From the IMG/VR virus record IMGVR_UViG_3300044616_001484: a DNA stretch of 64,000 nucleotides; one strand, 5' to 3'. Both the position numbers and the translations under genes were made by a program. The notes below the pieces were generated by a model, which saw only the letters and a program-made list of their open reading frames with translations, was not told the DNA's origin and did no database searches. How positions within the stretch are numbered: position 1 is the first letter of the stretch; each line of letters opens with the position of its first letter. Of this stretch, positions 30,771-57,565 are shown in pieces. The DNA comes from an uncultured virus (IMG/VR IMGVR_UViG_3300044616_001484). Lineage: Duplodnaviria; Heunggongvirae; Uroviricota; Caudoviricetes.

Positions 30771-30771
30771 T

Positions 30772-41568: not shown

Positions 41569-42105
41569 TCACGTGTTTCTTGATGTAATATTTTTGATTT
41601 CAATGTAATCGTAAACAATAATTACATTGAATGAATTCAGTGTATTGGGCTGCAACATATTTAGTGACAATTGAGAAACAGATGCTGGCCAGCAACCTTG
41701 CAAAACAAATTCTTTTAAAGGATTAGCTTCATCACCATTCATGTTTAAATGTTTAATTTTCCAGTTATATGCTTTATAATCCCTACCATCACTAATATCA
41801 AAAGATTGATTTGTTTCGTGATTGTTTATATCATTATGCCAATTTTGAAACATGTGCCATAAATTGTTTTGCTGTCCTGTATCATCAAGGACAGTAAAAG
41901 CCCAGTTTCCATAATCTCTTTCGCCCGGATAATGGTATTTTCTTCCAAAATAATCATACGTAAGAGTTTTTGTGGTTAACTGAGGTATGATCGTAGATCT
42001 TACGTGAAATCTTGTAAATCTACCGCCTGTTGGCACAGTTCCCTCTATTAAAAATCTATTTCCACGGGTTCCACCTAAGAAATTTGTTTTAAATTCATTT
42101 AACAT
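41569..42105 (-). CDS. gp19: Tail tube protein paralog 2
   Basis: GGTRGNRF, FGRK..PGERDY..W..TV.DD, GCWP. Confidence 0.85.
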   Translation of the reverse strand: MLNEFKTNFLGGTRGNRFLIEGTVPTGGRFTRFHVRSTIIPQLTTKTLTYDYFGRKYHYPGERDYGNWAFTVLDDTGQQNNLWHMFQNWHNDINNHETNQSFDISDGRDYKAYNWKIKHLNMNGDEANPLKEFVLQGCWPASVSQLSLNMLQPNTLNSFNVIIVYDYIEIKNITSRNT

Positions 42106-42636
42106 TTAGACTCCCCATATCTTTATGTTGTCAAATGTTAGTGTTACGCTAAAAGCAACAAAGTTGCTTTCTCCCATGTTTAGATTAATTTCTCCGACAA
42201 CGCTTGGCCAGCATTTATAAAGACTGATTCTTCTAATTGGATCATCACCGTTTACATCAAGATGTTGAATTTCCCATGTGGTCTGATACCGACTATATGA
42301 AAAGTCATTTCCCGTAACTTTGTGAGTAAAGTTACCATCCATCAATTCTTTCCATTTTTGAAAAGCCGACCACAAATTTTGCGTATTACCATCATCGTAT
42401 ATTCCAACAACCCACGGACTGTATTGGCGGTCTCCCGCAAAGTTAACAAGTCTCCCTCTATATGGAACACTTATTGAATTGATTTGAACAACAGGCAAAG
42501 AAGCGGAAATAATTTTAAATGTAGCATCATTTATGTTTACGCTGACACCTTGAGGCCAAATAGGTCTAACACGGAATCTGTTTGACCTTGTACCTCCGTT
42601 AAAATTATCTTTGAAAACGCTTATTGAGTTATTCAT
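42106..42636 (-). CDS. gp19: Tail tube protein paralog 1
   Basis: GGTRSNRF, VPYRGR....GDRQY.PW, CWPS.VGEI.L, FSVTL.FD. Confidence 0.9.
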   Translation of the reverse strand: MNNSISVFKDNFNGGTRSNRFRVRPIWPQGVSVNINDATFKIISASLPVVQINSISVPYRGRLVNFAGDRQYSPWVVGIYDDGNTQNLWSAFQKWKELMDGNFTHKVTGNDFSYSRYQTTWEIQHLDVNGDDPIRRISLYKCWPSVVGEINLNMGESNFVAFSVTLTFDNIKIWGV

Positions 42637-43919
42637 TATTGTGTGTAGGTAACGCTAATTACGAAACTATCTGTTGTAAGTATTGGTTTAACTACAACTT
42701 CAACATTTAGTGTTGAAGAATTATCTTGGTTGTTTACGTTGTCACATATAATTTGTGTTTGTGTTGTATCAATAAATGGAGCATATGGATCAAGTGCTGT
42801 CTGTATCTCAGAAATTACTTGATTACGTGTAGTCTGATTATTGATATCAAAGACGTATTTCAATGCAATCGTGTTAACATCTTTTGTAAGGTTTACACGC
42901 ATTCTGGCTGGACCAACTCTGTCATTAACTCCAATTGCACTATTTGCTGTGGCACCAACCAAATCTGCCCCCAAGAACTTAGGATTGTAATTTACGAAGA
43001 AGTTGGCTCTATTTGTGCGAAGGGTATTTTTTAAAGACCCAGCCCAGTCAATTGGATTTACGATATTTCCATTTATTACAGTTGCTCTGTCTAAACCAGC
43101 AACAGTCAAATAACTTTCATTTCTGTTTTTTGCTCTTGCAAAGAATCCAGCTACATCATTTGTAGCTTCGATGGTGTAAGTTATTTTTGTATTTTCTTGA
43201 ACTGAGCTAGTATCCAAATTTGTAAGAGTCTTAATTCCACATACATTGAATACTCTTCCAGCTACAGTTACACCCCTAGTATAAGCAGAACTTCCAAACA
43301 AAGTTGTAAAATTTGTTAGAGTATATCCACTACCAGTTATACCATCTGCTCCGGGAATAGTTGGATAAATTCCCATTGTGTACGGTTGATCTATAAACCA
43401 AGAAGCTACATCAGAATTAAAAAATGGGTCAACCATCAAATCAAAATAATTTCCACTATCTTCTGTGTAATCAGAGAATCCTAGTTGACTTCCTGCAATA
43501 ACAAGAGTTCCACCGTATGCAAGATAATTTATTGCATGCAAAAATTGAGTTCCTGCTGCTTTGGGTGAAAGTTGAGTATCAATTACATTAAAAAATCCAA
43601 ATGTTCCACCAGCAGCTGTGGCAGAAACTAAACATGCGGTAATACCATCTAGTTTGTTTAAATCACCGACTAAATCATAAGGATTTGTGTATACAATGTA
43701 TTTGTCTGTTGTTGCGCCCTTGGGAGTTGTATATCTTGTGGATCTTGAATATACTAACCATCCAAACAATCCACCCGGATCATTGTTTGCTGCACCGTTT
43801 GTTCCAGTAAAGGAGGGGGCGACGTAACCCGTACCCAATTTCATGGCTGTTAAAAAAGGAAAATTTAAATTTTCTTTTGTATATTGACTTGAGTTTACGA
43901 AAGAGCTGAGTGATGGCAT
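42636..43919 (-). CDS. gp18: Tail sheath protein, short and divergent (427 aa)
   Basis: A.NYLAYGG.L, DVAG..AR, AGLDR, F..N.Q.TR, ICDN.NN, VKP; between gp17 and gp19. Confidence 0.8.
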   Translation of the reverse strand: MPSLSSFVNSSQYTKENLNFPFLTAMKLGTGYVAPSFTGTNGAANNDPGGLFGWLVYSRSTRYTTPKGATTDKYIVYTNPYDLVGDLNKLDGITACLVSATAAGGTFGFFNVIDTQLSPKAAGTQFLHAINYLAYGGTLVIAGSQLGFSDYTEDSGNYFDLMVDPFFNSDVASWFIDQPYTMGIYPTIPGADGITGSGYTLTNFTTLFGSSAYTRGVTVAGRVFNVCGIKTLTNLDTSSVQENTKITYTIEATNDVAGFFARAKNRNESYLTVAGLDRATVINGNIVNPIDWAGSLKNTLRTNRANFFVNYNPKFLGADLVGATANSAIGVNDRVGPARMRVNLTKDVNTIALKYVFDINNQTTRNQVISEIQTALDPYAPFIDTTQTQIICDNVNNQDNSSTLNVEVVVKPILTTDSFVISVTYTQ

Positions 43920-43940
43920 TTTGTCCCTTTTTATATCAAA

Positions 43941-43948
43941 TATTTATA
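43941..43948 (-). promoter_or_regulatory. T4-type late promoter TATAAATA
   Basis: Exact consensus upstream of gp18. Confidence 0.75.
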
Positions 43949-43951
43949 ATT

Positions 43952-45607
43952 TTATGTTGGATACCAAATAACACCATCTTGCACAAATTCTTCATCATCG
44001 TCTTTATTTTGATCATTCATTGTTATTAAAATATTATCATCTTCGGGTTTTTGAGCATCTTCATAATTAAATTTGGCACTTTCAATCAAATCTGCATAAT
44101 ATTCTTGTCTACTCAACCAAGCAAAAAACACCAAAGTCATCACCATATCATCATTGTGGCCCTCTTCTGCTTTGTATGTATTAGATCTAGAAACAAATGT
44201 TGTCAGTTCTGTGATAATTCTTTCATCATTTAATAAAATTTTATCCTCTTCTATTAGTCTTTTGAGAATTGCACATCCCAATTTTTTGGTTTGTGCAGTT
44301 GTTCTGAGACCCATTTCACTTTTTCCTTGGGCAAATCCCTGAGATAAAATTTGTCCTTTTCTGCCCATTATGCGTGTCATCAGCACATTTTCATATTCTA
44401 AGTCATTGTAAAGTATAGAAGAAACTTGACCACCTATATCATTTGTTTCAACTAAAACATAAGCATTGTTATATTTTTCTCCTACTTTTTTAATAACATT
44501 CGGAAAGTTAAACGGACTTATAACATTATTTCTATACGATGCAACTATTTTATATGGCGCAGTTGTGCCGTCTATTACTGTAAAGGCAGAATAGTCCGAT
44601 CCTTGACCTCTACAAACATCAGCTTGCAAAAAGTAAATTTTATCTTTTTCTGGTTGATTGAATACTCTAAGACCTTCTGAATCTTCTTCCAAAGGTTGTT
44701 CTGGAGCCAAAACATTTAATTTTGATGAAGATATTAAAGTATTTGATGAACCTAAAAAGCTGCAACCATATTCTTGTTCAAACTGATCCGGACTGGTATT
44801 GGCTATTTGTTCGTCTGCCCATGCATCGTCTCTTAATTTTGGATTTCCCGGACTTATCGGAGTATCTCTCCAACTAACGTCAACTGGAATAAATTTATTT
44901 TTTAACTTATGTCCTTCTTGCCGATTAGCATCGACCCAAAGTTTATGAAAATGGTTCATTCCATTAGGTGTAGAAACAATTACAAGTTTTGTTGTAGTAC
45001 CAGCTGAAATGGTTGGATATGTCGCTGTATAGAACTCTTCAGCTACATGGCTTGGCAAGAAGGCGTACTCGTCAAGCAGCAATAGGTTATAAGAGCCACC
45101 ACGGATCGCTGTAGAGGATGTAGCATCACACATGACTCTTGAACCGTTTTCTAATTTAAAGCTCGTCTTATTCCATTCTACTACTCCTTGCTGAAGAAAA
45201 TGTGGTAAGTTTTCATATGCAAGTTGAAGTTTGGAAAAAAGTTCTTCTTTTGCGGTCTTTAACCGGTTTGCCAAAATTGCTACGTTAACGCTTTGGTTAA
45301 AAGTTATGTAATGGCAAATGTAGCTAGTTACACATGTGGATTTACCGCACTGACGGGGCCATTTTGAGATTGTAAATCTATTCTGATGGATTGCGTTTAC
45401 AAATTTTTGCTGATATGGGTACAGATTAAAAGACACAACTCCTTTATCAAGTGTTTTTACTTTTACGTATTTTTCACAAAAGTAAACTGGATTGTTTGCA
45501 CACTTAATGTATTCTTCTAACTGTTCTTTTGTATACTGTAACTCTATTCCCGGTAACTTTAGATTGGGGTTATTCCGGTAGCCTTGGTTGGTGTTTTTGT
45601 TCATCAT
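43952..45607 (-). CDS. gp17: Terminase large subunit
   Basis: PRQCGKST, LDEYAF, STPNGMNHF, FEQEYGC.F.GS, HNDDMVM. Confidence 0.97.
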   Translation of the reverse strand: MMNKNTNQGYRNNPNLKLPGIELQYTKEQLEEYIKCANNPVYFCEKYVKVKTLDKGVVSFNLYPYQQKFVNAIHQNRFTISKWPRQCGKSTCVTSYICHYITFNQSVNVAILANRLKTAKEELFSKLQLAYENLPHFLQQGVVEWNKTSFKLENGSRVMCDATSSTAIRGGSYNLLLLDEYAFLPSHVAEEFYTATYPTISAGTTTKLVIVSTPNGMNHFHKLWVDANRQEGHKLKNKFIPVDVSWRDTPISPGNPKLRDDAWADEQIANTSPDQFEQEYGCSFLGSSNTLISSSKLNVLAPEQPLEEDSEGLRVFNQPEKDKIYFLQADVCRGQGSDYSAFTVIDGTTAPYKIVASYRNNVISPFNFPNVIKKVGEKYNNAYVLVETNDIGGQVSSILYNDLEYENVLMTRIMGRKGQILSQGFAQGKSEMGLRTTAQTKKLGCAILKRLIEEDKILLNDERIITELTTFVSRSNTYKAEEGHNDDMVMTLVFFAWLSRQEYYADLIESAKFNYEDAQKPEDDNILITMNDQNKDDDEEFVQDGVIWYPT

Positions 45608-46034
45608 TTATCACTTCCGCTTCCACAACATCTTTGTTGGTGCTTCTTTCTTTATTTAAAAAGTTTTGTAAATCTTTTGTAGACCCAACAAATAAAGAAT
45701 TATTTGTTTGTTTTACTTCCACTTTTGAGCCAGTTGTATCTTTAGCTTTTTTGTGTACGTCCAAAACATTGTTGTTTAGTTCTGCCATGGTTTTTAATAA
45801 TATTGCAACAACTTCAAAAGCTCTTGGACTATCAGATTGAGTTGCAACTTTAAGGGCACTCTCTAAAGCAACGTTTCCTGTACCAATCAAATCTTTTATA
45901 TTTGATTGTACCAATTCATAGTCTTTTTGAAAATTTGCTGAATCAAATGTTCCACCGTGCAAATTTTGTTTTGGCTCCGGTGCTTCATTTAATGGCACAG
46001 AGAACAACTTGGCTAAATTTTTATTTACATTCAT
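45570..46034 (-). CDS. gp16: Terminase small subunit
   Basis: SPRAFEVVA, NNSLFVGSTKDLQ. Confidence 0.92.
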   Translation of the reverse strand: MNVNKNLAKLFSVPLNEAPEPKQNLHGGTFDSANFQKDYELVQSNIKDLIGTGNVALESALKVATQSDSPRAFEVVAILLKTMAELNNNVLDVHKKAKDTTGSKVEVKQTNNSLFVGSTKDLQNFLNKERSTNKDVVEAEVINDEQKHQPRLPE

Positions 46035-46037
46035 GTG

Positions 46038-46697
46038 TTAATCAAAATCAATAATATTATTTGGACTACTATCAATTGTGGTAGCTCCTGCAACAGCTCC
46101 GTAAATATACGATTTGGCTATAAAATTAAAAGTAGATATATGAATTCTTCTACTATTTAAATCTCCCTCGTATCTGTCAGTAAGATTGTTTGATGTCATA
46201 ATAATAGGAACATTTACTTGCTGACCTCCTTCATTCAACTGCATTGATATGATGTGATCTGGAACAAAATAAGGCATTATCTGCTCAACTATTTGCATCA
46301 TATCATCAACGTGTCTTGTATAAGCAAAAAGATTAAAGCTTATATTTACAGGTATTTCATTAGCAATCTGCTGTCCTGTATTTTGACATACTCCTTGATT
46401 TGAAGACAGATCAAGCTTGCTTGCAAATCTTGTCCTTCTTCTTGAAGGATCTGGAGAAATAGAATTCATTATAAAACTAATTCTAGGCAATTGATTTTCA
46501 ATTCTAGTTCCTTCGGTAATAGAAGAAGGATTTAACAATCTTTGTATGAATTTTTCTTGCGATGAATATGTTACGGGAACACGCAATATTGTATTGGGTC
46601 CGCTCTCATTGTCATGAGAAACATATATGTTGCTAAAAAGAGTACCAAATCCAACAATTAATCTCCGCAAGCTTTTATTATAATAATATCCAAACAT
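46038..46697 (-). CDS. gp15: Tail sheath stabiliser/terminator
   Basis: FGTLFSNI, VPVTY...EKF, LPRISF, QIVEQIMPYF.P. Confidence 0.92.
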   Translation of the reverse strand: MFGYYYNKSLRRLIVGFGTLFSNIYVSHDNESGPNTILRVPVTYSSQEKFIQRLLNPSSITEGTRIENQLPRISFIMNSISPDPSRRRTRFASKLDLSSNQGVCQNTGQQIANEIPVNISFNLFAYTRHVDDMMQIVEQIMPYFVPDHIISMQLNEGGQQVNVPIIMTSNNLTDRYEGDLNSRRIHISTFNFIAKSYIYGAVAGATTIDSSPNNIIDFD

Positions 46698-47365
46698 TAG
46701 TTTCCTTCCGTGCAGCCGTCTGCTGGGTTGTTTGCATCAAAGTCGTATAAGAAAGCCTCGTCATCAAGTATCTTGTTAATACCAGCTGTAGTGCCAAGAT
46801 TATTGTTGAGGGGATCAAATGTAACTCCAGCAACGACTCCCGTACTTGTATAAGGTTTATTAATATCTGGATTGAAGGTATTGATCTTCTCGTAACTGTA
46901 CGTAAAGAGTTCTGCAGTTATCTGGTATGAATAAAGTTTGCCTAGAGGATATAGAGGATTTTCATGCTCTACAAAGTTTATTTCAAAAAGAGATTTTGAA
47001 AGAGGAAAGTAAATTAAATCGCCTTCTCTTGGTCTAGTAATGCTAGAGTTGATATCGGTAACTTGTTCTTTGAACCTTTTTCTGGCCATCAACAGATTTA
47101 TTTTATCTTTAATTTCGATTCCAAACTGTGTTATTACATCCGTACCTTCAAATCCTTTATAGGACATTATATACATTTCAATTGTATAAGTTTGATCAAA
47201 CGATGTTGCTGGATCTTCACCAAAAAGACGGTCTATGTTAAAATAGTTTCTAGGAACATAAATGCAGTCTTGACCAACTGTTTGGATAATTTCAACAGTA
47301 ACATCTTCCAGCAATTTTTGTTCTGCTTGGAAAGATGATAAGTTAATATATGGATTTATCGCCAT
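46697..47365 (-). CDS. gp14: Neck protein
   Basis: Y.PR, FGED, FGIEI.D, RPREGDLIYFP, FEINFVEHE.P. Confidence 0.93.
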   Translation of the reverse strand: MAINPYINLSSFQAEQKLLEDVTVEIIQTVGQDCIYVPRNYFNIDRLFGEDPATSFDQTYTIEMYIMSYKGFEGTDVITQFGIEIKDKINLLMARKRFKEQVTDINSSITRPREGDLIYFPLSKSLFEINFVEHENPLYPLGKLYSYQITAELFTYSYEKINTFNPDINKPYTSTGVVAGVTFDPLNNNLGTTAGINKILDDEAFLYDFDANNPADGCTEGN

Positions 47366-47367
47366 TG

Positions 47368-48195
47368 TTATCCTATCATTGGGTCTACTGGCAACTCATA
47401 GTTCTTCATCAGTTGCGATTCAATCTCAGCTATTTCTCTTGCTGCTTCTTGCATTATTGCGGGAGCGTTTAATGAGGCTCCACCGGGAAGCGGAACTCCG
47501 GTAAACTTCATCAAATTTTGCGCCCATTGTTTCTTTAATACTGCAGCAAAGTATTTTTTAAATATTCTATCTTGCCAAATTTTTGGATATTCATCTTCGC
47601 TTATTTTTACATATGCTTCTACCATCAAATAACGAGATGTGTCTAGCTTAGTGTGATCCGTATCTAAAAACAAACGATCTGTAGTCTTGGTGTAGGTATA
47701 AGAAAGAGGATAGTTAAAAATGTCATTTACCAACTTAAGGTATGACATACCTTCCATGTAAGCAGCCATGGGTCCATTGGAATAACCTGATTGATTAAAG
47801 TAAAGACCAAAGAAATCAAATAAAGTCATCTGATAGCGAAGATCAAACATATAATCACCAACTTTATAGCTTGGTGCATAAACTTTAGAAATGGTTAAGA
47901 TATCTGTAGCATTTGGCCAATATCCTGTGGTGCCATCTGGTGCAGTTCTTATTTGGGCACCCAATGCTGGACCAAATTGAGTAGTATCAAAATATTTTCT
48001 ATTTACATCTTGCGATTGAACTTGATAAACGTATATTGCTCTTTGATTAAAATCAAAGTGCCTTTCCTGCATGTAAATTAAAGCTTCGTCCAAACGATCC
48101 TCTATTTGTTGGGGATCTACGTTTACTTGGACTACTGGTGCCCCCAAGGTGCGAAGGGTGTAATCTATGAATTCTTGTCGGGTGGTTATGGCCAT
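47368..48195 (-). CDS. gp13: Neck protein
   Basis: LGAPVVQVNV..Q.EDR.DEAL, KKQWAQNLMKF.GV.LPGG. Confidence 0.94.
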   Translation of the reverse strand: MAITTRQEFIDYTLRTLGAPVVQVNVDPQQIEDRLDEALIYMQERHFDFNQRAIYVYQVQSQDVNRKYFDTTQFGPALGAQIRTAPDGTTGYWPNATDILTISKVYAPSYKVGDYMFDLRYQMTLFDFFGLYFNQSGYSNGPMAAYMEGMSYLKLVNDIFNYPLSYTYTKTTDRLFLDTDHTKLDTSRYLMVEAYVKISEDEYPKIWQDRIFKKYFAAVLKKQWAQNLMKFTGVPLPGGASLNAPAIMQEAAREIAEIESQLMKNYELPVDPMIG

Positions 48196-48203
48196 CTTAG
48201 AAA

Positions 48204-48211
48204 TATTTATG
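48204..48211 (-). promoter_or_regulatory. Late promoter variant CATAAATA
   Basis: 8 nt upstream of gp13 ATG. Confidence 0.6.
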
Positions 48212-48653
48212 AATTATCTATTATTTTGTTTAAATCATTCACAAATTTTTCTTTTTGTTCGTTTCCGCCTATTGTGACGTTTATAAATTGTAATTTTTCT
48301 GGATCAAAGTTTTCTATCTGTTCTTTTCTAAACCGGGTTTCTATCGTATATGCATTGGGGTCATAATTTGAAAATCCGGGCATCTTTACTGGACAACTTA
48401 AAGTCGGATAGTCAAGTTTTGAATAATCATCCGAGTTTTTTATGAGCCAAGTATGTTTTTTATCTCCGCAACCACATTTACCACAGTAATGATTTCCCGG
48501 AGTAGAGCTATTTCTTAAAAACGGACATGGTTTAATATCTTCATAACCAAAACAAGACAAAGCTCTTAATTGTTTTGTGGGTATATCAGTTTTTGTATTG
48601 TTTATTCCGCGTGATGCCAAAGATGCAGCAAACATCATCATTTTTTTAAACAT
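48207..48653 (-). CDS. Small Cys-rich protein
   Basis: R..SC....PCP...YCGKCGCG...LSCP. Confidence 0.7.
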   Translation of the reverse strand: MFKKMMMFAASLASRGINNTKTDIPTKQLRALSCFGYEDIKPCPFLRNSSTPGNHYCGKCGCGDKKHTWLIKNSDDYSKLDYPTLSCPVKMPGFSNYDPNAYTIETRFRKEQIENFDPEKLQFINVTIGGNEQKEKFVNDLNKIIDNS

Positions 48654-48665: not shown

Positions 48666-49298
48666 TTATAGTGTGGTGTAAATTATAGAAATTCCGGCAG
48701 GAACAGCATATGTTTCTAAAAAAGTTTTATATAACATTAATGTATCATAGTAAGACGAATTTATTTTTATATTCATAACTGCAGCCGTAGAGGTGCTTAC
48801 TAAAACAGAATCCCAAGGTATTCCCAACAAATTGCAAATCAAATACTTTATAGCTTCGGGAGTTCCCTTTACATTAAAGTAATTTGCATCGGCATTAATT
48901 GAAAATTTCTTAACATTTGGGATCAGAGATACAAAATTTTCTTGACTAAAATCTGCTCCGGGAAAATAAAAATCAAGATAAGCTTCTAAAAAAATTTCGT
49001 TGGCTAAGGGTATGGTTCTTAATTTTTCCCAATCTAACTGAGCACCATAACCATATTCCAAAGAAAGCAACCACCGCATATAGTTTTTAATAATTTTTGT
49101 AACAAGTACATCAGAGCTTTCTTCGGCTGCTTTTACAATCCAAGATGGAAATAAAGATTCGATTGTAAGTTTATCTGCAAGCCATTTTTGATTTTCAATG
49201 TCATAATAATCAGAATTGTATAATGTCTTTGCTCTTGAAATTAAAGCATTTATTTTTCCATCTACTGAAGCTGGTTGTGTACTAAAAAAGATTATCAT
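48666..49298 (-). CDS. Short gp7-like baseplate wedge protein
   Basis: LFPSWI, Y.RWL, YFNVKGTPEAIKYL, PAG; follows gp6. Confidence 0.6.
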   Translation of the reverse strand: MIIFFSTQPASVDGKINALISRAKTLYNSDYYDIENQKWLADKLTIESLFPSWIVKAAEESSDVLVTKIIKNYMRWLLSLEYGYGAQLDWEKLRTIPLANEIFLEAYLDFYFPGADFSQENFVSLIPNVKKFSINADANYFNVKGTPEAIKYLICNLLGIPWDSVLVSTSTAAVMNIKINSSYYDTLMLYKTFLETYAVPAGISIIYTTL

Positions 49299-50371
49299 TG
49301 TTGGTAAATAACTGTTATACCGGCTGGTGTTAAATCTGAAAGATATGTAAGCAAACTAGAAACATCAGTTGAAGAAAGACCAGAAACATAAACTTTAACT
49401 TCTCCCGGATACGATCCATTTGATACCGTTATCAATGATTCGGTGCTTGTTCCCGATATCCCAGAACTCATTATTGCATTTTTGTAATCATTTAAAGTAA
49501 CACAACGTTCTTGTCCGGTTGCTTTAAATAATAATTTTGCTCTTGCTTCTGCTACTGAAATTTGATCATAACCACCGCTGGGAAGAGCAAATGTTCCAAA
49601 AGTTACATCACTTCTTGAAGTTATAGTTGCACTATTTGCTACGCTTCCATTTGAAAGAATTGCCTGTATTAAAATATTACTATTTGTAGTGACTTCTCTT
49701 GATGAAGCAAAATTATTTGTTACCATATACCCTTGTGGGGAATTCATAACAGTAAAATGCGTATTATTTCCAGTTGTTGTTGTGCTGGACTTATCTACCC
49801 GTGTCCACTTTATAACATTGTTGCTACCAATCTGGGTCTCGTACATATTGATTGTCGCAGGATCAACATTAAATGGAAGAATACAACTTTGGTTATCAAA
49901 GTTATAATTTGTAAAACTTACTACCTCAGTTCCGGAATATAATGTTATACTTTTTGATGTATTTGGTAAAACTTGTTCAGTATTAAAGAAAAACACATCA
50001 GCACCATTGGTTGCTCTGGCCTTGAATGTCGTGTAATCTTCAAGCGTAACACCAGCAATAGTTACGGTTCTTTGAGCTTTTGCTGATTGTATTGGAGCAA
50101 CTAAAACAGAAGAGTTAGAAGCTATTCCTAAAATAGACTCCATAACATTGGCGGTAGTTGCAAAGCTGTTAACAAATCCAAATTGTGCATATATACCGTT
50201 ATATGCCGTTACCGTGGACAAAATATTTAAAAGAAGATTTACTGAACTAGCTTCATTTCTAAAATCCAAGTCTTTTAAATCACTTTGTTGCTCTAAAAAT
50301 GATATAAGTGAAGATTTAATATCATCAAAGTCCAAAGAAGCTACGTTTAAATTTGTTAGTTGATATGTCAT
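49295..50371 (-). CDS. gp6: Baseplate wedge protein, short (358 aa)
   Basis: LDFDDIKSSL..FL, GG.D..S, Q.RCVT..DY, PGEVKV. Confidence 0.85.
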   Translation of the reverse strand: MTYQLTNLNVASLDFDDIKSSLISFLEQQSDLKDLDFRNEASSVNLLLNILSTVTAYNGIYAQFGFVNSFATTANVMESILGIASNSSVLVAPIQSAKAQRTVTIAGVTLEDYTTFKARATNGADVFFFNTEQVLPNTSKSITLYSGTEVVSFTNYNFDNQSCILPFNVDPATINMYETQIGSNNVIKWTRVDKSSTTTTGNNTHFTVMNSPQGYMVTNNFASSREVTTNSNILIQAILSNGSVANSATITSRSDVTFGTFALPSGGYDQISVAEARAKLLFKATGQERCVTLNDYKNAIMSSGISGTSTESLITVSNGSYPGEVKVYVSGLSSTDVSSLLTYLSDLTPAGITVIYQQ

Positions 50372-50748
50372 ACTAATTCTACCTCAACAAAGCATGAAGC
50401 ATTGTTTTGTGTTTTGATTCCATCAAATATGCTAAAATTAATTTGGAATGAAAGCTCTTCATTTTCTTGGGACAAAAGCTCAACTTTCACATCACTTATT
50501 TGTGGTATAGCAGCCTGAATATATGCTGCCAAGTTTAATTCTAAAAGACCGGCATCATTTGTTCCAAAAATATAACTAAAGTAATCCGAACCCATGTTCA
50601 TATCAGAAATGAGCTCTCCTTTTTGAGTCTTCATTATATGTTCAATGTATTGAGAAATAGCATTAAACCCTGTCACAATACCAATGTCTTTTTTGGTCTG
50701 TGCAGTTTCTACTTTTTCTAATAAAATTGAAAAATCTCGTATAGCCAT
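50368..50748 (-). CDS. gp25: Baseplate wedge/sheath initiator
   Basis: AI......T.KGE.....GS; position before gp6. Confidence 0.75.
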   Translation of the reverse strand: MAIRDFSILLEKVETAQTKKDIGIVTGFNAISQYIEHIMKTQKGELISDMNMGSDYFSYIFGTNDAGLLELNLAAYIQAAIPQISDVKVELLSQENEELSFQINFSIFDGIKTQNNASCFVEVELV

Positions 50749-50753
50749 CTAGT

Positions 50754-50761: not shown

Positions 50762-51577
50762 TTAGGTATAATCAGCTGCGTATGTTCCGCCAGCTTGGAT
50801 TGAAGATAGGTTTTCTGGTATTCTGGTTACAGAAAGAGCGGTTTCATGAGCTTGCGTCGTAACAACATGTTTTATTCCAATAATATAATAATAATTATTT
50901 AATGGCGATGATGTGCTTGAATACGGATATCCGCTAGCTGCATTAACATTAATATATACAACTTGACCCAATTTTAATTTAAAATCGCCAGCAACAGTAA
51001 AGTCTGCTTTTTGACCATATTTTAAAGCATCTAAAAATTCAACTCTTTTAATTGGAGTTATTTTTGGAGTGTTCCAGAAAGTGGCCACATTTTGTCTTAG
51101 TTTTAAATAATTTACAAAGTTTGGACCAATATCAGGGCATGTGCAACTAAGAGAAGCTTCTGGAGTTCCCCAAAGACATCCAAGCCAGCTTGTAGCCAAT
51201 TGTGAATTAATTTCTGCACACTCTACCGATGGCTTTTCCAAATACATGTCAACTGGAGTAAATGTATTTGTTAAGTTTGGATTGGGAGCAGTAGAACCAG
51301 TCCATAAAGTATAGTTGTATTTTTTAGTTCCGCCTGAAGCACCAGATCCACCTGATGCACCAGAAGATCCTGAAACTCCACTCAAAAATCCAAGATAAGT
51401 TGCTATATCTTTTATTCCAGTAAAACGGTCAAAACATTCATCAATTGTGTTTGGTATTCCAGTTACGCCTCTAGTTATAGAAGAATTTGCACAAATATAT
51501 GTGTCTCTTGAGTTTAGACCATATAAAGCTTCTTGGCTATAATTTGTACCATAAGTTTTTATTTGATTTGTTGCCAT
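50762..51577 (-). CDS. Baseplate hub-like protein, C-terminal part (gp27/GpD-like)
   Basis: VAGDFKLKLGQVVYI...YYIIGIKHVV...HETALSVTR resembles hub C-termini. Confidence 0.55.
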   Translation of the reverse strand: MATNQIKTYGTNYSQEALYGLNSRDTYICANSSITRGVTGIPNTIDECFDRFTGIKDIATYLGFLSGVSGSSGASGGSGASGGTKKYNYTLWTGSTAPNPNLTNTFTPVDMYLEKPSVECAEINSQLATSWLGCLWGTPEASLSCTCPDIGPNFVNYLKLRQNVATFWNTPKITPIKRVEFLDALKYGQKADFTVAGDFKLKLGQVVYINVNAASGYPYSSTSSPLNNYYYIIGIKHVVTTQAHETALSVTRIPENLSSIQAGGTYAADYT

Positions 51578-51588
51578 GTTATTCTTCC

Positions 51589-53592
51589 TTAACCGGTATT
51601 TCCACCAGTATTGCCCCCGTTAGCTCCTCCGGTACTCCCAGTATTCCCGGAGCTGGGAATCGTACAGCAACCGTCAAACGCATTTTCTGCCGTAAAGTAG
51701 TAAACGTAATTATTGCCATCAGTATACTTACATAGCTTTACAATATGAAAAATATCTTCTCCGATAGAGAGTGTTGTAGCTTTTGCACCAATTGGTCTCA
51801 ATTTAAATCCAGCTGGGGCACAGCTGCTTATATATCCAGTTGGGATATATCCAGTGGTCAAGCCTCGTTCATTCAAATTTATGGCCCATGTATCGTCTTG
51901 AGTATTAGAAGATTTTAATATATCAAATCCCCATTTTTCAACTTGATAGAATAAATCTATTCCACAAGATCCACCCGATGCACCCGAACCACCAGAATTT
52001 CCTGTTCCACCCGATATACCAGAAGTAGATCCCGTTGTTCCTTCAAAAGACAATTTATTCCATTTGTATCTGTATTTTTTTCCTACAGAGTTTCCTGCAG
52101 GACAATTGCTATCTTCCTCATAACGCAATAATGCTGCAAAGAAACACTCTTCTTCTTTTTTACCCATGCAACACAAAGAATACATTATAAAATTTTGCAA
52201 TTCTATTCTTCTAATTTCTTCAAGTCTAGCTGCAGCACCAGATGCACCGACAAGATTTTCAGCTAAAAATGCGTTGTATCTAATATTCATTACTTTTTGT
52301 AAATACGTATTTACACCCGGAACAAGTGCAGCTGAACCAACACTATCTGGATAATTTGGATGGACTTCCGTCATATCAAACATGTTTTTCCACATTTCTG
52401 TGTTATCAACAAATTGCATGTAACCAGATGAACCCATAAAATTCATCTTAGAGTAAACATTTTGTGTTCCAAAGTTTTGTCCAATCAAACTATGATGTGA
52501 TGCATCGTTAATAGCATCTAAACCATCATAATAACCCCAATGAGGTTCGTATACTACTTGTTCTGCACCGGGAACAGCTATGCCAGTTCCATCTGTATCT
52601 ATTAGTTCAATATTGTACTTTTGACCTTCGTCTTGAAATTGATACATTAACGATTTATAGTTATATGAATCAATATCATCTGGAGAGGTTATTCCTGATG
52701 GAATTAGATCTAAAACTTTTGGAGTTTTCTTTATGTAATAATAGTTCTTTGATATAAATTGATACGCTGGATTGGTTGTGAAGAAATAAGCTTTTCTATA
52801 AACTTTTTTATCTGAAAGTTTTTGTATAACAGCATCACCATCAAGAATGCCTATTCGTCTGTAATCTGCATCCAACGTTGCTGCACTAGGATCATCTTGT
52901 GGATTTCTATGAAAATATTTAAAATTTACAGTTCCATCAAATTCAGTCCAAAACATGTATTGTGGTACACCATATTGAACTCCAGCATGGACGGTACTCA
53001 CTGCACTAGAAGCAAGATAATTTAAATAATCAATTGGGTTGTCTGCAACTGCTTCTTGTCTATCATAAAAAGTATTTAAAGGTCTATACAAAACATAATT
53101 TGATGTTGGGTCTGAATATCCCGAAGCTCCATTAAATGCTTTTTGTTTTACTAAATTTACAAAGTCATTTACCAAATAAACATTTGGCTTTTTGATGTTT
53201 AAAATTGTATTTAAAGATGTTTTTTGTACAGCAGTATAGTATGGATTAGATATGTAAATTCCAACAAAGTTTTCTTCAGTATCAGATGCTGCGTTATTTA
53301 AATAGCTGACACTTGTTACTACGGTTGGCCATTTATTTCCATTAAAAAATTCTATTACTACTTTATCAATATTATACTGTTTTATTCTTCCAACAATATC
53401 TTTTGTATCTCTTACTATGACAACACCACTGGGAAAAACATCGTTAATGTTTTCTACCAATTCTAATCTTTCAAATTGGCATTCAGTATTTTGTATTAAA
53501 ATATTAACAGATTCTGAGTTATAGCTACTTTGTAGATAAATGGCTTTAACCGTAGAATAAGCTGGATTAAATTCACCTTGTGTATTTGGCAT
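51589..53592 (-). CDS. Baseplate hub-like protein, N-terminal part plus appended domain
   Basis: LELVENINDVFPSGVVIVRDT and YMFWTEFDG.VNFK hub-like motifs; follows gp53. Confidence 0.55.
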   Translation of the reverse strand: MPNTQGEFNPAYSTVKAIYLQSSYNSESVNILIQNTECQFERLELVENINDVFPSGVVIVRDTKDIVGRIKQYNIDKVVIEFFNGNKWPTVVTSVSYLNNAASDTEENFVGIYISNPYYTAVQKTSLNTILNIKKPNVYLVNDFVNLVKQKAFNGASGYSDPTSNYVLYRPLNTFYDRQEAVADNPIDYLNYLASSAVSTVHAGVQYGVPQYMFWTEFDGTVNFKYFHRNPQDDPSAATLDADYRRIGILDGDAVIQKLSDKKVYRKAYFFTTNPAYQFISKNYYYIKKTPKVLDLIPSGITSPDDIDSYNYKSLMYQFQDEGQKYNIELIDTDGTGIAVPGAEQVVYEPHWGYYDGLDAINDASHHSLIGQNFGTQNVYSKMNFMGSSGYMQFVDNTEMWKNMFDMTEVHPNYPDSVGSAALVPGVNTYLQKVMNIRYNAFLAENLVGASGAAARLEEIRRIELQNFIMYSLCCMGKKEEECFFAALLRYEEDSNCPAGNSVGKKYRYKWNKLSFEGTTGSTSGISGGTGNSGGSGASGGSCGIDLFYQVEKWGFDILKSSNTQDDTWAINLNERGLTTGYIPTGYISSCAPAGFKLRPIGAKATTLSIGEDIFHIVKLCKYTDGNNYVYYFTAENAFDGCCTIPSSGNTGSTGGANGGNTGGNTG

Positions 53593-53593
53593 G

Positions 53594-54433
53594 TCAACTA
53601 TATTTAACTGTTATAAATTGTGTTTTTAATGTACCTATTTCACTAGGAAGGAAGCATAAAATGTTTTTTGATTTGTCTTCAACAACTTTTAATACACTTA
53701 CGGGAATTGTTTGTGTAGGCTGAACAGGTACTGGCGCAGCCTTTTTTTGATCTGTTGTTGGTAAAGATGAATATGTATTTTTAAAAATAATTTTACCATC
53801 TTCTGGTTTTTTAATTTCTACAGTAGTGTCCAAGTATTTTTCTTTATTGCTAACATAGGCATTGTTATAAACAGAATACCCAGTTGCTGTCGGATATATT
53901 ACGGTTAACTGTTGGCCGGTAGAACCGGTCGGAGTCATGAATGAATACGTTGCACCTTTTTGGTCTTTTATTACCATATTTCCATCATAAAAAGATACAG
54001 ATTCGATAATAGAAATTGGACCGTTTAAGTCAAAATTTCCAATATAACCAAAACTAGAACAAGAACCAGTATTTGCAATATATGGTGCAATTATACTTCC
54101 TTGGGGAAAAGCTATTCCCGTAGTACCACTTACATTTTGGACTGTTGCAAAATTTATTTTATTTTCATTTGTTTTTGTAAACAAAACAGTATTGTCAGAC
54201 AACAGATCAAATGGATTTATTTTTTTTGCAGCAAGTAAAAAAGCCCAAAAATTATTTAAATCTTGATATACATCGTAGCTGGCCTCTAGTAAAGTTGTTT
54301 TTGAATCTACCAAAACATTATCAGTGGAAAGAGATACAGCATCTGCATCTATATAAGTAAAAAAACTGGATATATTAAAATTTCCAATTGTTGATGCAAA
54401 AGATCTTTTTGGCAGGTTTTCAAAATACTTCAT
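53594..54433 (-). CDS. gp53: Baseplate wedge protein
   Basis: MKYFENLP, SYDVYQD.N.FW..LL...INPF. Confidence 0.7.
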   Translation of the reverse strand: MKYFENLPKRSFASTIGNFNISSFFTYIDADAVSLSTDNVLVDSKTTLLEASYDVYQDLNNFWAFLLAAKKINPFDLLSDNTVLFTKTNENKINFATVQNVSGTTGIAFPQGSIIAPYIANTGSCSSFGYIGNFDLNGPISIIESVSFYDGNMVIKDQKGATYSFMTPTGSTGQQLTVIYPTATGYSVYNNAYVSNKEKYLDTTVEIKKPEDGKIIFKNTYSSLPTTDQKKAAPVPVQPTQTIPVSVLKVVEDKSKNILCFLPSEIGTLKTQFITVKYS

Positions 54434-54438
54434 AAGAA

Positions 54439-55260
54439 TTATCCATTGTACCCAAAGTATCTATAAGAGATTTCAGACTTGGACCATGTTGCATTTGCTT
54501 CAGGAACATATGTTCCGGTTTCAAATTCGGTGAATACCAGACCCAACAAAGTTACAGACGATCCACCATTAGGTAAGTATCTCACAACAGTATCAGCGTC
54601 ATCATTTTTCTTTACAATAACTGTATTTAAAACACAAACTAATGGTTCACCAAGCCAATTTGCAGTAAGGTTTGCATCTCCACCCAGAGCTACGCCATTT
54701 CCACGTGTTACAGCCAGAGCCCACAAATTTTGTGGATATGATCTTTCTGGCAAATTAGATGCAATAGTTGGATATGAAGATTTTCTAAAAGTTCCTACAA
54801 TATTTTCAACGGCAATAGATTCGTCATTGCTTTTTGGAACTAAAACATATTGGAAAAAATATTGTTTTCTTCCTTCAGAAATCATTGTCATTTCTGCTAT
54901 ATTGCTAAAACGTCTGTAAGTAGATGTAGCAAACATTCTCTCATGATAAAACAAAGCGGGTTGCATAACTCTTGCCAGCATGTTTCCTGCACCCGATAAA
55001 TTGACTCCACCGCTGTTTGCCAATCCAGCTCTAGATAATATTGGTCCAACTGGATTGTTGTTACTTTCACCATAATTGTGTTGAATTGTGTACCCCGGCT
55101 CTTTTGGCATTGGTAACTGAAGGTGGGCAAAAGAACGGTTTATAACTCCAGAACGAGTACGTTCGAAGTTTTTTAATGAATATGTGGCAGAATAAAAATT
55201 CATCCACAACGGCTGTTCTGCAGCATAAACACCAAATGGATATTTATAGGTCGATGGCAT
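54439..55260 (-). CDS. gp48: Baseplate-tail tube cap
   Basis: YKYP, LPMP, R.Y.F.Y.LVPKS.DES..V..IV..FR...YP, L.FTE.E. Confidence 0.75.
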   Translation of the reverse strand: MPSTYKYPFGVYAAEQPLWMNFYSATYSLKNFERTRSGVINRSFAHLQLPMPKEPGYTIQHNYGESNNNPVGPILSRAGLANSGGVNLSGAGNMLARVMQPALFYHERMFATSTYRRFSNIAEMTMISEGRKQYFFQYVLVPKSNDESIAVENIVGTFRKSSYPTIASNLPERSYPQNLWALAVTRGNGVALGGDANLTANWLGEPLVCVLNTVIVKKNDDADTVVRYLPNGGSSVTLLGLVFTEFETGTYVPEANATWSKSEISYRYFGYNG

Positions 55261-55269
55261 CTGTAAAAG

Positions 55270-55293
55270 TATTTAGATAAAATTCGCTAAATA
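55270..55293. promoter_or_regulatory. Divergent pair of late promoters (TCTAAATA minus 55270-55277; GCTAAATA plus 55286-55293)
   Basis: TAAATA cores 9 nt before gp48 ATG and 5 nt before gp4 ATG. Confidence 0.65.
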
Positions 55294-55298
55294 ATTTT

Positions 55299-55715
55299 AT
55301 GGCATACCGTACCAAATACATCCCAAAAAATAAGGAAAAGTATATTGGTGATGCTGCAAACATTACATGCCGTTCTTTATGGGAAAGAAATATTTGTAAA
55401 TTTTGTGATGAAACTCCAAATATTGTAAAATGGTCTTCAGAAGAAATAGTAATACCTTATGAAAGCCCATTAGATAAAAAAATGCACAACTACTATCCAG
55501 ATTTTTTAATACAGGTAAAAACTGGAGATTTGGTCAAAACTATGATGGTTGAAGTAAAACCAAAAAAACAAACTTATTTGAAGGAAAATGCTTCAAAGAA
55601 AGAAAAAATAACTTGGATAATTAACACAGCTAAATGGAAAGCTGCAGAAATTTATTGCAATAAACACAATATGGAATTTAAAATAGTAACAGAAAAAGAG
55701 ATTTTCGCAAAATGA
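55299..55715 (+). CDS. gp4: Head completion protein (TnsA-like nuclease fold)
   Basis: P.N.EKY.GD, RSLWER, WSSEEI.IPY, HNYYPDF, VEVKP, N.AKW.AA. Confidence 0.93.
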   Translation: MAYRTKYIPKNKEKYIGDAANITCRSLWERNICKFCDETPNIVKWSSEEIVIPYESPLDKKMHNYYPDFLIQVKTGDLVKTMMVEVKPKKQTYLKENASKKEKITWIINTAKWKAAEIYCNKHNMEFKIVTEKEIFAK

Positions 55716-56275
55716 CCAATTCTATCGTAAATATAAAAAATTACTTTGATAGACACAAAGGACTTCAAAGAAACAACCGATACTCTTTATCCTTTGCTGG
55801 GTTGCCTACAACACTACCCCAGCTTCCCGAAGATGACATTCAGGCTTTTGCTGTATCAATGGGTGCAAGAGCTATAGATTCGATTGCAGATAACTTGGCT
55901 GGTTATGGTTCAGGCCGTGCAGTTCCAAGATCGCAAAGATTTGTTCCCGGTGTTATGTTAACATTTGCAATAACTAATGATAATTTTATTACAGACTTTT
56001 TTAATAACTGGTTTAACTTAATATACTCTGGCGGAAGAATAAAAGAATCATTGGATTCACCATTCCAACTTTCATTTTATAATGATATTATATACAACTC
56101 ACAATTAAAGGTAAAGCTGCTAGATCCAAATGGTAATGTTAATAGAGTTTATACTTTTTTTGAGATATATCCGCTAGAAGCTATACCAGTTGAATTAAAT
56201 ATGATAGAAACAAACAAGTACATGATTTATCAAGTATTATTAAATTACAGAGAATTTACATTTAAGGATTCATAA
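55712..56275 (+). CDS. Tail tube-like protein (gp19/gp54 family; likely tube initiator)
   Basis: G..R.NRY, V.LTF, FF..W, Y...EIYP. Confidence 0.7.
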   Translation: MTNSIVNIKNYFDRHKGLQRNNRYSLSFAGLPTTLPQLPEDDIQAFAVSMGARAIDSIADNLAGYGSGRAVPRSQRFVPGVMLTFAITNDNFITDFFNNWFNLIYSGGRIKESLDSPFQLSFYNDIIYNSQLKVKLLDPNGNVNRVYTFFEIYPLEAIPVELNMIETNKYMIYQVLLNYREFTFKDS

Positions 56276-56940
56276 TGGACAATATAGTTGAATTTTTAAA
56301 CGCTTCTATGCCAAAATACGAAACTGTTTTGCCTTTTTCTGGCAAAACTGTTTCTTTTTCTCCTTTTAAAGTAAAAGATGCAAAAAATATTGCAATTATT
56401 TTACAAGAAAACAATAAAAAACTTGCTCTCAAAGCAATGATTGACTTAATTAAGTCTTATTGTGAAGATTTTGATACTTCTGAGGCTTGTTTGGCCGATG
56501 CTGAATACTTATTTTTGCAAATAAGATCAAAAAGTGTTGATGAAGTTTTAAATTTGGTAAGAGATAATGAAAAAATACAAGTAAGTATATCAGAAATAAA
56601 GCCAAGAAATAAAATAAACACAGAATCTATCAATTTGGCATCTGGTATTGTACTTCATCTAAAAACACCAACAGTAAAGGATCTTCTAAAACTCCAAACA
56701 CTGGATAAAGAAGATCTAACAAAAGCATGCATAGAAAAAATTGCTATAAAAAATGAAGTATATAATGCAAATAAGTTTGTCCCAGAAGAAATAAAAAAAG
56801 TATTGGACAATCTACCACTATCGGTTATACCAAAACTAGATAAATTTTTAAAAGACCAACCAGAACTATATTTAAAAATTCCCTTTGACTCGGGGGAAAA
56901 GGAGGTATCTGGTTTATTAAATTTTTTTATCTATCGGTAA
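56275..56940 (+). CDS. gp26: Baseplate hub assembly protein
   Basis: P.YE..LP.SGK.V...PF.VKD.K, D.EYLFLQIRSKSV.E, C-terminal GL.NFF. Confidence 0.9.
   Translation: MDNIVEFLNASMPKYETVLPFSGKTVSFSPFKVKDAKNIAIILQENNKKLALKAMIDLIKSYCEDFDTSEACLADAEYLFLQIRSKSVDEVLNLVRDNEKIQVSISEIKPRNKINTESINLASGIVLHLKTPTVKDLLKLQTLDKEDLTKACIEKIAIKNEVYNANKFVPEEIKKVLDNLPLSVIPKLDKFLKDQPELYLKIPFDSGEKEVSGLLNFFIYR
56922..56928 (+). other. Candidate -1 ribosomal frameshift site T TTT TTT
   Basis: -1 frame is open from here into the gp51 ORF. Confidence 0.6.
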
Positions 56941-56951
56941 AGTTTTTTGAT

Positions 56952-57134
56952 TTGAGAAATTACTTTGTCACTAACTTTACCTTGATAAACAATTTTGGAT
57001 GGAGTCTTTTAGATATTGAAAACCAAATATACTGGGAACGGGATATTTATTTAAAATTGGTTGCAGATTACGAAGAACAGAAAAAACAAAAACAAATGCA
57101 AAAAATGCATGGCTCGGAGTATTTTAACTTATGA
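56952..57134 (+). CDS. gp51: Baseplate hub assembly protein, gp51-like (TTG start only)
   Basis: NYF.TNF.L....WSL.DIEN...WERDIYL.L. Confidence 0.8.
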   Translation: MRNYFVTNFTLINNFGWSLLDIENQIYWERDIYLKLVADYEEQKKQKQMQKMHGSEYFNL

Positions 57135-57565
57135 ACGAAGAAAATAATAATTTTTCAATAGACATTCAGGCTGAAGTGAATTCGATGGGGAACACCCAAG
57201 AAGAGCTTACAGGCGAACCATCTACAATAGTAAATGTTCTTAAAGATATACCTTTGCCGGAAACATCTTTTTACACTGCTACGGACGTTGATACAGGTAC
57301 TAGAGTTGCACCTCAAATAGCTATTATTGATAAAGACTTTAATATCAAGATGGATGCTGAAACAGCATATTCAAAAGCTGAAGAAACAGAAAAAAAATTA
57401 AAGGAAGTTAAAGATGGTATGTTGGATATGTATAATAATATGATGAATTCATGGTTGCCAAATAACAATAAAGATGAGTTTGAAGAAAGACCAACAACCG
57501 AGCCTCAAAATTTAATATTTGAAAATAGAAGAGATAGAATGAGTATGCCTCCAAAGTGGGCATAA
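57131..57565 (+). CDS. Acidic hypothetical protein at the expected tape-measure position
   Basis: ATGA-coupled to gp51; ends at a terminator. Confidence 0.6.
   Translation: MNEENNNFSIDIQAEVNSMGNTQEELTGEPSTIVNVLKDIPLPETSFYTATDVDTGTRVAPQIAIIDKDFNIKMDAETAYSKAEETEKKLKEVKDGMLDMYNNMMNSWLPNNNKDEFEERPTTEPQNLIFENRRDRMSMPPKWA

Follow-up and report, generated by a model that had tools for sequence, protein, structure and literature searches.

The stretch of DNA analysed here, referred to below as the window, comprises 64,000 nucleotides of the IMG/VR record IMGVR_UViG_3300044616_001484, an uncultured virus of the Caudoviricetes with a G+C content of about 33%. Between positions 41569 and 57565 it carries the genes of a T4-type tail core, including hub, wedge, neck, sheath and tube. 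A sequence-only reading had described this interval as a miniaturised T4-type tail. All open reading frames (ORFs) that it listed are present with the lengths and positions it assigned to them, and they are kept across a clade of related viruses. Not mentioned in that reading were two ORFs of the interval, of 271 aa (50762–51577) and 148 aa (48207–48653), and a conserved -1 slippery run between gp26 and gp51. The parts are indeed small and the gene set is strongly reduced, but a short tail is not supported. We consider it probable that the interval is the tail core of a T4-like clade, built from a reduced list of parts around a split central hub, with a contractile tail that is most likely of ordinary length. 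The following features were assigned:

41569–42105, minus strand: tail tube paralogue B, 178 aa (phrog_45, E 9.8e-23; Pfam gp19 below cut-off)
42106–42636, minus strand: tail tube paralogue A, 176 aa (phrog_45, E 1.5e-30)
42636–43919, minus strand: minimal tail sheath, 427 aa (match to the gp18 C-terminal domain)
46038–48195, minus strand: gp15 (219 aa), gp14 (222 aa) and gp13 (275 aa), neck and tail completion (phrog_227, E 9e-57; phrog_679, E 1e-59; phrog_211, E 2e-31)
48207–48653, minus strand: Cys-rich 148-aa protein at the place of gp8 and the outer baseplate in T4 and cyanophages (six invariant Cys)
48666–49298, minus strand: 210-aa protein in the slot of gp7 or P2 gpI (4-nt overlap with the gp6 stop)
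49295–50371, minus strand: N-terminal half of gp6, 358 aa (phrog_219, E 2.4e-23, profile positions 3–324 of 598; PF21379)
50368–50748, minus strand: gp25 sheath initiator, 126 aa (PF04965, E 1.3e-7; four gp25-type PHROGs)
50762–51577, minus strand: hub piece 2, 271 aa, a Cys-rich N-terminal part followed by the last gp27/phrog_350 hub domain (C-terminal phrog_350 match)
51589–53592, minus strand: hub piece 1, 667 aa, gp27-like over residues ~5–280 with an extension of ~390 aa (predicted structure, Foldseek, VIA)
53594–54433, minus strand: gp53-like wedge protein, 279 aa (ESM Atlas 0.95, 217/256 features, clusters carrying PF11246)
54439–55260, minus strand: gp48-like tube cap, 273 aa, a weak assignment (phrog_230, E 1.2e-7 over 34 residues only)
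55299–56275, plus strand: gp4 head completion protein (138 aa) and gp54-like tube initiator (187 aa) (phrog_218, E 6e-50; phrog_45, E 2e-12)
56275–57134, plus strand: gp26 and gp51, probably fused in a share of the product by a -1 slip (PF12322, E 7.6e-31; phrog_634, E 2.9e-12)
57131–57565, plus strand: acidic 144-aa protein in the tape-measure slot (position after gp26/gp51)
57568–57597, no strand: hairpin terminator common to the 144-aa ORF and gp32, which converge on it, with a 13-pair stem including 6 GC pairs (from the sequence)

The window belongs to an uncultured, widespread, aquatic clade of T4-like viruses, in which the arrangement of the head, neck, packaging and replication genes follows that of cyanomyoviruses and pelagimyophages. 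Head and packaging genes, already judged normal from the sequence, gave strong, full-length family matches in PHROG (threshold E<=1e-3) and Pfam (E<=1e-2): portal (PF07230, E 1e-167), protease, scaffold, capsid and the small and large terminase subunits. The portal is about 49% identical to cyanomyovirus portals and likewise about 49% to that of Pelagibacter phage Mosig. Replication genes in the window comprise gp32, 44, 45, 46, 47, 55, 62, regA, uvsW and uvsY. When IMG/VR viral contigs were scanned with gp6, 30 pattern matches led to 24 related loci with gp6 60–100% identical. The gene order from portal to gp32 is unchanged as far as each locus extends, and sizes are nearly constant (sheath 426–436 aa, gp6 358–366 aa, protein in the gp7 slot 210–211 aa, counterparts of the 144-aa ORF 140–158 aa). 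Four long relatives of 79, 95, 136 and 137 kb (CheckV completeness 44–76%) are collinear with the window. Since 24 loci and four long relatives are collinear and sizes are kept, the layout is a trait of the clade and not an accident of one assembly; the same collinearity rules out assembly artefact, chimera or chance as an explanation.

The gene for the central hub is divided in two. The 667-aa protein, which is encoded on 111 viral contigs, has 170 relatives among protein clusters, none of them named or carrying a Pfam domain. Its AlphaFold2 (AF2) model, computed from 66 sequences, is confident for residues 1–270. Foldseek ranked T4 gp27 first (E 3.3e-5) and then Mu gp44, VgrG and other hubs; the first 15 matches at E<=1e-3 were all hubs or VgrG proteins. 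Residues 5–280 superimpose on residues 4–284 of T4 gp27 (VIA Z 10.4, root-mean-square deviation 4.2, 214 residues aligned), a region of two tube-like beta-barrel domains. In BFVD the model gave 112 matches at E<=1e-3, led by proteins of 400–470 aa from cyanophages and other T4-like phages, and hub chains bearing long extensions were also present among the fold matches. Judged by its modelled fold the 667-aa ORF is a gp27-type hub, an identity that had not been made in the earlier reading. As a tape measure it is ruled out, being rich in aromatic residues and beta structure and having the gp27 fold.

The missing end of the hub is found in the neighbouring 271-aa gene. Positions 357–421 of phrog_350 match this gene in all five relatives (E 8.9e-9 to 6.9e-4), and a profile search of 1.8 billion proteins found its C-terminal half as the last domain of 118 proteins of 71–2118 aa. 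When distant relatives of this half were scanned, 19 of 20 matched phrog_350, with the domain at positions ~349–431 of 436; Pfam yielded only two sub-threshold YQBQ-like matches among 38 of them. Structure comparison of the 271-aa protein gave weak matches (Z 5.0–6.1), 14 of the 17 top rows being the last domain of hub proteins, and the AF2 model is poor (predicted local distance difference test, pLDDT, 55). We also modelled residues 1–290 of the 667-aa protein in complex with residues 160–271 of the 271-aa protein. The model scored 0.88 as opposed to 0.00 for the best of three controls and passed a benchmark mark that 116 of 157 solved complexes and 2 of 215 mismatched pairs also attain; its runs share at least 81% of contacts with a partner pLDDT of at least 71. 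In it the 271-aa domain pairs strand to strand with the tube-like domain of the hub. Because single-chain hubs are among the solved structures, passing the mark shows likeness to a complete hub and is not proof of binding.

In 19 of 19 loci the first gene ends with a stop codon and the second starts -2 to +12 nt from it, the relative frame varying between loci. We conclude that two adjacent genes together encode the hub and that the cut lies within about 550 aa of additional sequence (~390 + 160 aa). The 667-aa protein would provide the two tube-like domains of the hub and the 271-aa protein the closing domain. Giant phrog_350 members and Tal-type hubs are alike in that a gp27-like module is combined with large extra domains. 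In the giants, which are metagenomic proteins of 1300–2100 aa, the N-terminal part lies at the N-terminus and the last domain at the extreme C-terminus of a single chain, as seen in three giant relatives of the 271-aa protein, whereas in the window clade the gene is cut within the extra region in every one of the 19 loci holding both genes. Syn9 gp94 (983 aa), considered as an unsplit counterpart, shows no likeness and belongs to phrog_719. The comparison of T4 gp27 as a single sequence with the clade profiles (hhalign) was non-significant. PDB sequence and profile searches were uninformative for the 667-, 279-, 271-, 210-, 148-, 144-, 325- and 431-aa proteins and for a full-length phrog_350 member, and tblastn against isolated phages gave no match for the hub, the 144-aa ORF or the 1020-aa ruler-like protein of a relative.

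No gp5 needle could be recognised beside this hub. The PAAR model (PF05488) matched none of five records, with a positive control in three genomes. Phage_base_V (PF04717) was found in none of five relatives, and phrog_430 (gp5) in none of five shorter ones; Gp5_OB (PF06714) also matched none of five, but the control for this model matched nowhere, and the hub extension may hold a distant or unrecognised fold of this kind. T4 gp5.4 had no tblastn match in the window or the four long relatives. With T4 gp5 as query only the lysozyme part matched, in stand-alone ORFs of 225–230 aa in two relatives, which are probably endolysins. The sequence-only reading had noted that gp5 needle/lysozyme and PAAR are lacking between hub and gp25, and this holds at the level of sequence and hidden Markov model (HMM) searches. 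Its further step to a non-piercing tail is not supported: the hub is present, and its additional domains of about 550 aa could form a tip. We suggest that this extra sequence forms the distal tip of the tail and would stand in for gp5 and PAAR.

The same reading had proposed that gp5, gp8, gp29 and second copies of gp18 and gp6 be sought elsewhere in the genome. In relatives of up to 137 kb, whose records are incomplete, we found no gp5 or PAAR, no gp29, and no gp8 except for one weak partial match to phrog_438 (E 1.4e-5, 77 of 478 positions) in a 960-aa fibre-cluster protein of one relative. Sheath (open frames of 430–436 aa) and gp6 occurred as a single copy in each of five relatives.

The sheath protein aligns over residues 246–425 with residues 463–643 of T4 gp18 (hmmsearch against the PDB, E 1.2e-5; hhalign probability 92.9) and shares about 30% identity with the C-terminal part of gp18 in 15 cyanophage records. 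For residues 1–245 no match was found, and the protein matched neither phrog_23 nor the Pfam sheath families at the thresholds given above, although phrog_23 does match the sheaths of P2 (FI, 396 aa) and Mosig (639 aa). As the earlier reading had observed, the 427-aa gp18 has no recognisable SPGV motif: its N-terminus reads MPSLSSF, where T4 has LSPGI, Syn9 LSPGV and Mosig VSPGV. An N-terminal SPG(V/I) strand, absent here, is common in sheaths but does not define them. Domains I and II of T4 gp18 (~260 aa) are outer, dispensable domains. The 427-aa subunit fits a core-only sheath in which the inner domain forming the contractile lattice is kept and the outer domains are lost or replaced. The sheath gene lies between terminase and tube genes. 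Tube paralogues A and B lie side by side, are 32.6% identical over 175 aa and are both kept in the relatives. The single tube protein of Mosig matches both by tblastn; Syn9 likewise has one tube gene, compared with two in the window clade.

The wedge is reduced to its conserved core, consisting of gp25, the N-terminal half of gp6, the 210-aa protein and gp53, and in this resembles the W-J-I module of P2. Residues 12–298 of gp6 align with T4 gp6 23–347 (hhalign probability 96.3), and gp6 also aligns with Syn9 gp6 6–329 (probability 92); by tblastn T4 gp6 26–405 matches the window protein. The latter ends about 55 aa past the aligned part, and the C-terminal 250–300 aa of T4 gp6, its second half (residues ~406–660), are without counterpart. 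Its short length of 358 aa, remarked on earlier, thus corresponds to the N-terminal half, the conserved core. The 210-aa protein, of the size given for a gp7-like protein in the sequence-only reading, is encoded directly after gp6. It has 246 homologues, of which the 120 listed measure 174–222 aa and carry no Pfam domains. Its similarity to T4 gp7 723–776 (hhalign E 0.017) and to P2 gpI 53–91 (E 0.21) is non-significant and at motif level, the shared motif being KGT. The gp53-like protein shows a weak hhalign match on the LysM-like stretch of T4 gp53. Its gene adjoins gp48, as in P-SSM4, and the gp48-like gene is placed as gp48 is there.

Only 1.1 kb separate gp6 from gp13 in the window, compared with ~38 kb in Syn9, where this stretch holds giant wedge and fibre genes including a gp8-like gene. 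Here the space between the 210-aa ORF and gp13 is occupied by the 148-aa protein, which is kept in 23 loci and has six invariant Cys, including a CGKCGCGD motif; PHROG, Pfam and PDB searches gave no family or structure match. Mosig carries gp8 and the 2045-aa VrlC. Neither these two nor Syn9 gp8 and gp10-like or T4 gp7 to gp12 had a tblastn match in the window or the four long relatives. Sequence and HMM searches of window and relatives therefore uphold the statement that no gp8 lies between gp7 and gp13. According to the sections of PMC7029224 consulted, gp8 and VrlC are common to all 31 pelagimyophage and 4 cyanomyophage genomes compared in that work; since both were not found here, the clade differs from these groups in this respect.

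In the divergent unit, gp4 is followed by gp54 as in P-SSM4, and then by gp26 (56275–56940) and the 60-aa gp51 (56952–57134), both on the plus strand. A slippery T TTT TTT occurs at 56922–56928, 16 nt before the stop codon of gp26, and the -1 frame, which is that of gp51, is open from 56889 to 57134. Of 21 sequences, among which some records are counted twice, 20 keep the T7 run together with an open -1 frame; the exception is situated at the edge of a locus. From the sequence it is likely that a gp26-gp51 fusion of ~285 aa is made beside gp26. The two genes would then represent a frameshifted chaperone pair of the kind formed by lambda gpG and gpGT, where a slippery heptamer shortly before the first gene ends likewise leads to a -1 extension just upstream of the ruler slot. 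The family, however, is here that of T4 gp26 and gp51, two separate genes in T4, and the gene that follows encodes only 144 aa. Such a chaperone pair would imply that a tape-measure client exists.

That the slot behind gp26 and gp51 is the position of the tape measure is supported by P-SSM4, which has ruler-like protein of ~2100 aa there: its gp4-gp54-gp26-gp51 operon continues with proteins of 1064 and 1079 aa, which are helical in their N-terminal parts and carry Gly-rich hydrophobic stretches; the hub gene comes next. Gene 017 (469 aa), directly behind the ruler-like genes, is a full-length member of phrog_350 (E 1e-135). In the window we found, as described before, only the 144-aa ORF and a terminator after gp26/51. 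Rulers measure 590 aa in T4 and 815 aa in P2, and the ruler-like protein of P-SSM4 has 1064 aa. The 144-aa protein is acidic, has no hydrophobic segment and is conserved only in its C-terminal ~30 residues. Among relatives its length ranges from 140 to 188 aa, with indels of up to ~45 aa between close relatives. It gave no family, PDB or phage-database match, and hhalign was non-significant against T4 gp29 and the ruler-like P-SSM4 protein (E 0.28 and 0.51) as well as against T4 gp28.

Proteins of ruler-like composition are encoded elsewhere in the relatives (509, 555, 931 and 1020 aa; G007:C1:115601-120196, G008:C1:38003-40798, G002:C1:91205-92872). They are of low complexity, rich in Ala, Glu, Lys, Gln and Arg and free of Cys or Trp, and two of them carry Gly-rich hydrophobic stretches. 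They are candidates for a ruler that has been relocated, or else for ejected proteins. A protein of 784/791 aa in relatives was also considered as ruler and dropped, since its C-terminus reads like an HNH nuclease. In the parts of PMC7029224 consulted, no ruler is identified by sequence in pelagimyophages or cyanomyophages.

Two regions at the end of the window also bear on the parts list. At 58842–61119 lie two beta-rich, Gly/Ser/Thr-rich proteins of 325 and 431 aa, kept in all four long relatives and without family or PDB match, which may be outer baseplate or fibre parts. At 63466–64000 the window end cuts the C-terminal end of a probably very Cys-rich giant protein. In relatives G3 and G7 the corresponding place is taken by ORFs of 1065 and 1285 aa; BLAST links the window piece to neither of them, nor the two to each other, and no family match was obtained.

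The earlier reading had taken the small subunits as a sign of a stubby tail. Subunit size does not set tail length, and sheath and gp6 have lost peripheral parts while keeping their conserved cores. P2, whose simple baseplate (P2 and Mu type) has W, J and I proteins of 115, 302 and 176 aa and whose FI sheath measures 396 aa (126, 358, 210 and 427 aa in the window), has a full-length tail, so the deduction fails. A truly stubby tail would require the 144-aa protein (140–188 aa) to be the tape measure, giving a tube and sheath of ~20–30 nm, some 5–7 rings. We regard this as very unlikely, even though the ORF sits where P-SSM4 keeps its ruler-like genes, the strictly kept frameshift signal of the chaperones lets a client be expected, the protein evolves fast around a conserved C-terminal end as rulers do, and relatives of up to 137 kb yielded no other recognisable ruler. 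It is unlike T4 gp29 and the P-SSM4 protein, is acidic and devoid of hydrophobic or Gly-rich segments such as the P-SSM4 proteins have, and shows the large indels mentioned above between close relatives. The relatives are incomplete, and ruler-like proteins do occur elsewhere in them. We know of no contractile phage tail as short as 20–30 nm. If the 144-aa protein were the ruler after all, the contractile tail would be far shorter than any known myovirus tail and would combine a minimal sheath with a simple wedge and with a split hub in place of the gp5 needle. Most likely the 144-aa ORF is not the ruler, and the real one is probably encoded elsewhere in the genome, outside the window. The tail would then most likely be contractile, of ordinary length and thin-walled, with a simple baseplate and with fibres encoded elsewhere (582–9861). 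Several observations weigh against this preferred reading. The gp29 family of T4, phrog_1283, was found in none of the four relatives, and the ruler-like proteins of P-SSM4 had no tblastn match in the window or these relatives. In every relative the 144-aa ORF alone fills the slot after the chaperone pair, as a stubby tail would have it. The candidate rulers are poorly conserved, resemble rulers by composition only and lie among genes of DNA metabolism; those of 509, 555 and 931 aa share only an N-terminal domain of 100–160 aa, and BLAST matched the 1020-aa protein to none of them. All records of relatives are incomplete, the longest being 75–76% complete by CheckV. As for the hub, support for the 271-aa piece from fold alone is weak (Z at most 6.1; no Foldseek match below E 0.27), and the AF2 models are poor in both the C-terminal extension of the 667-aa protein and the N-terminal part of the 271-aa protein, so that the tip is one that we infer.

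Two further explanations concern the missing parts. Unlikely, in our view, is that nothing is missing and that gp5, gp8 and the outer baseplate are present but have diverged beyond detection. Candidates for them would be the 325- and 431-aa proteins and the Cys-rich giant, all kept in the four long relatives without an assigned family, and the weak gp8-type stretch in the fibre-cluster protein of one relative points in the same direction. This is countered by the short wedge operon, with its 1.1 kb in place of ~38 kb, and by the failure of gp8, VrlC and gp7 to gp12 of Mosig, Syn9 and T4 to match anything by tblastn. Alternatively, the 271-aa protein might be a spike equivalent to gp5 that docks under the hub, not a piece of it. 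Its gene is flanked by those of hub and gp25, which is the position of the spike gene in T4 and P2, the complex model predicts that the protein binds the hub, and its N-terminal 160 aa are without an assigned fold. This we hold to be improbable: the recognisable part matches the last hub domain and not an OB fold or beta-helix, the Phage_base_V and PAAR models match nothing in five relatives, and the strand-to-strand pairing with the tube-like domain is that expected of a domain of the same fold. The interpretation as a split hub with extra domains is therefore the one we follow.

The closest known systems are the cyanomyoviruses and pelagimyophages of the Kyanoviridae (P-SSM4, Syn9, Mosig EXVC030M). 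They share with the window the order gp13-gp20, gp21-23, gp3, uvsY/uvsW, gp55, gp47/46 and gp45/44/62/regA, the divergent unit with gp53 and gp48 on one side and gp4, gp54, gp26 and gp51 on the other, and the hub family phrog_350. They differ in having sheaths of 639–753 aa, gp6 of 619–676 aa, a single tube gene, gp8 of 486–510 aa, VrlC (2045 aa) or other giant wedge proteins, a hub of one 469-aa protein and the ~2100 aa of ruler-like protein after gp51; P-SSM4 also has a 769-aa gp5, for which the window clade shows no recognisable counterpart. With T4 the window has in common recognisable gp3, 4, 6, 13, 14, 15, 18, 19, 25, 26, 51 and 54, weak matches to gp48 and gp53, and the gp27 fold. In contrast to T4, gp5, 5.4, 7, 8, 9, 10, 11, 12, 28 and 29 were not found (tblastn or HMM), the hub is split, and the sheath has 427 aa instead of 659, gp6 358 instead of 660 and gp51 60 instead of 249. 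The T4 sizes quoted in the earlier reading, which include gp7 (1032 aa) and gp29 (590 aa), are correct. With P2 the clade shares the order of gp25, gp6 and gp7 slot with overlapping stops and starts, an arrangement that works like a minimal wedge. Unlike P2, the clade lacks a gpV-type spike; comparison by hhalign with P2 J, I, FI, D and V was non-significant, and gp6 clearly belongs to the T4/cyanophage lineage. Because gp6 is of this type and no sequence membership with P2 exists, we consider the tail to have been reduced within the T4 lineage and not to be a P2 module swapped in. The system is a distinct form of the T4-type tail, with reduced sheath and wedge, duplicated tube and a split, extended hub; work on a clade of this kind did not appear in literature listings for T4-like cyanophage rulers and baseplates.

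Further genes of the window and its relatives were noted. A gp3-like tail terminator with a tube-type fold (178 aa; phrog_45, E 3.1e-28) lies outside the interval at 34872–35408 on the minus strand, after the capsid gene and before uvsY as in Syn9. The neck block of gp13, gp14 and gp15 also matches PF16724 and PF11649. In one relative (G007:C1:46619-49849, locus L118) a 1076-aa protein with a BLAST match to gp14 adjoins a normal gp14; by its sequence it may combine a neck fibre with a gp14-like part in one chain. The fibre cluster at 582–9861, apart from the baseplate operon, encodes collagen-like fibre proteins of 841 and 565 aa, a Cys-containing protein of 590 aa and an 825-aa tailspike of the pectate-lyase type with an Mtd_N domain. 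An island of ~14 kb at 17855–32141 with a G+C content of 27–30% carries sugar-nucleotide and glycosyltransferase genes, among them epimerases, UDP-glucose dehydrogenase, methyltransferases and NAD synthetase. Since most of its genes are without counterpart in the relatives, it represents a hypervariable region.

Among contractile tails, that of T4-type phages is the textbook example of greatest complexity. Here a widespread lineage keeps the T4-type head, neck and replication genes, with a tail cut down to roughly the minimum of P2. This constitutes a natural experiment on which parts of the T4 baseplate are dispensable, on how a gp27 hub tolerates splitting and extension, and on whether a tail can do without a gp5/PAAR needle. 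The slot expected to hold the ruler is marked by the gp26-gp51 frameshift, and in this clade it is almost empty, which sharpens the problem of ruler annotation in marine T4-like phages.

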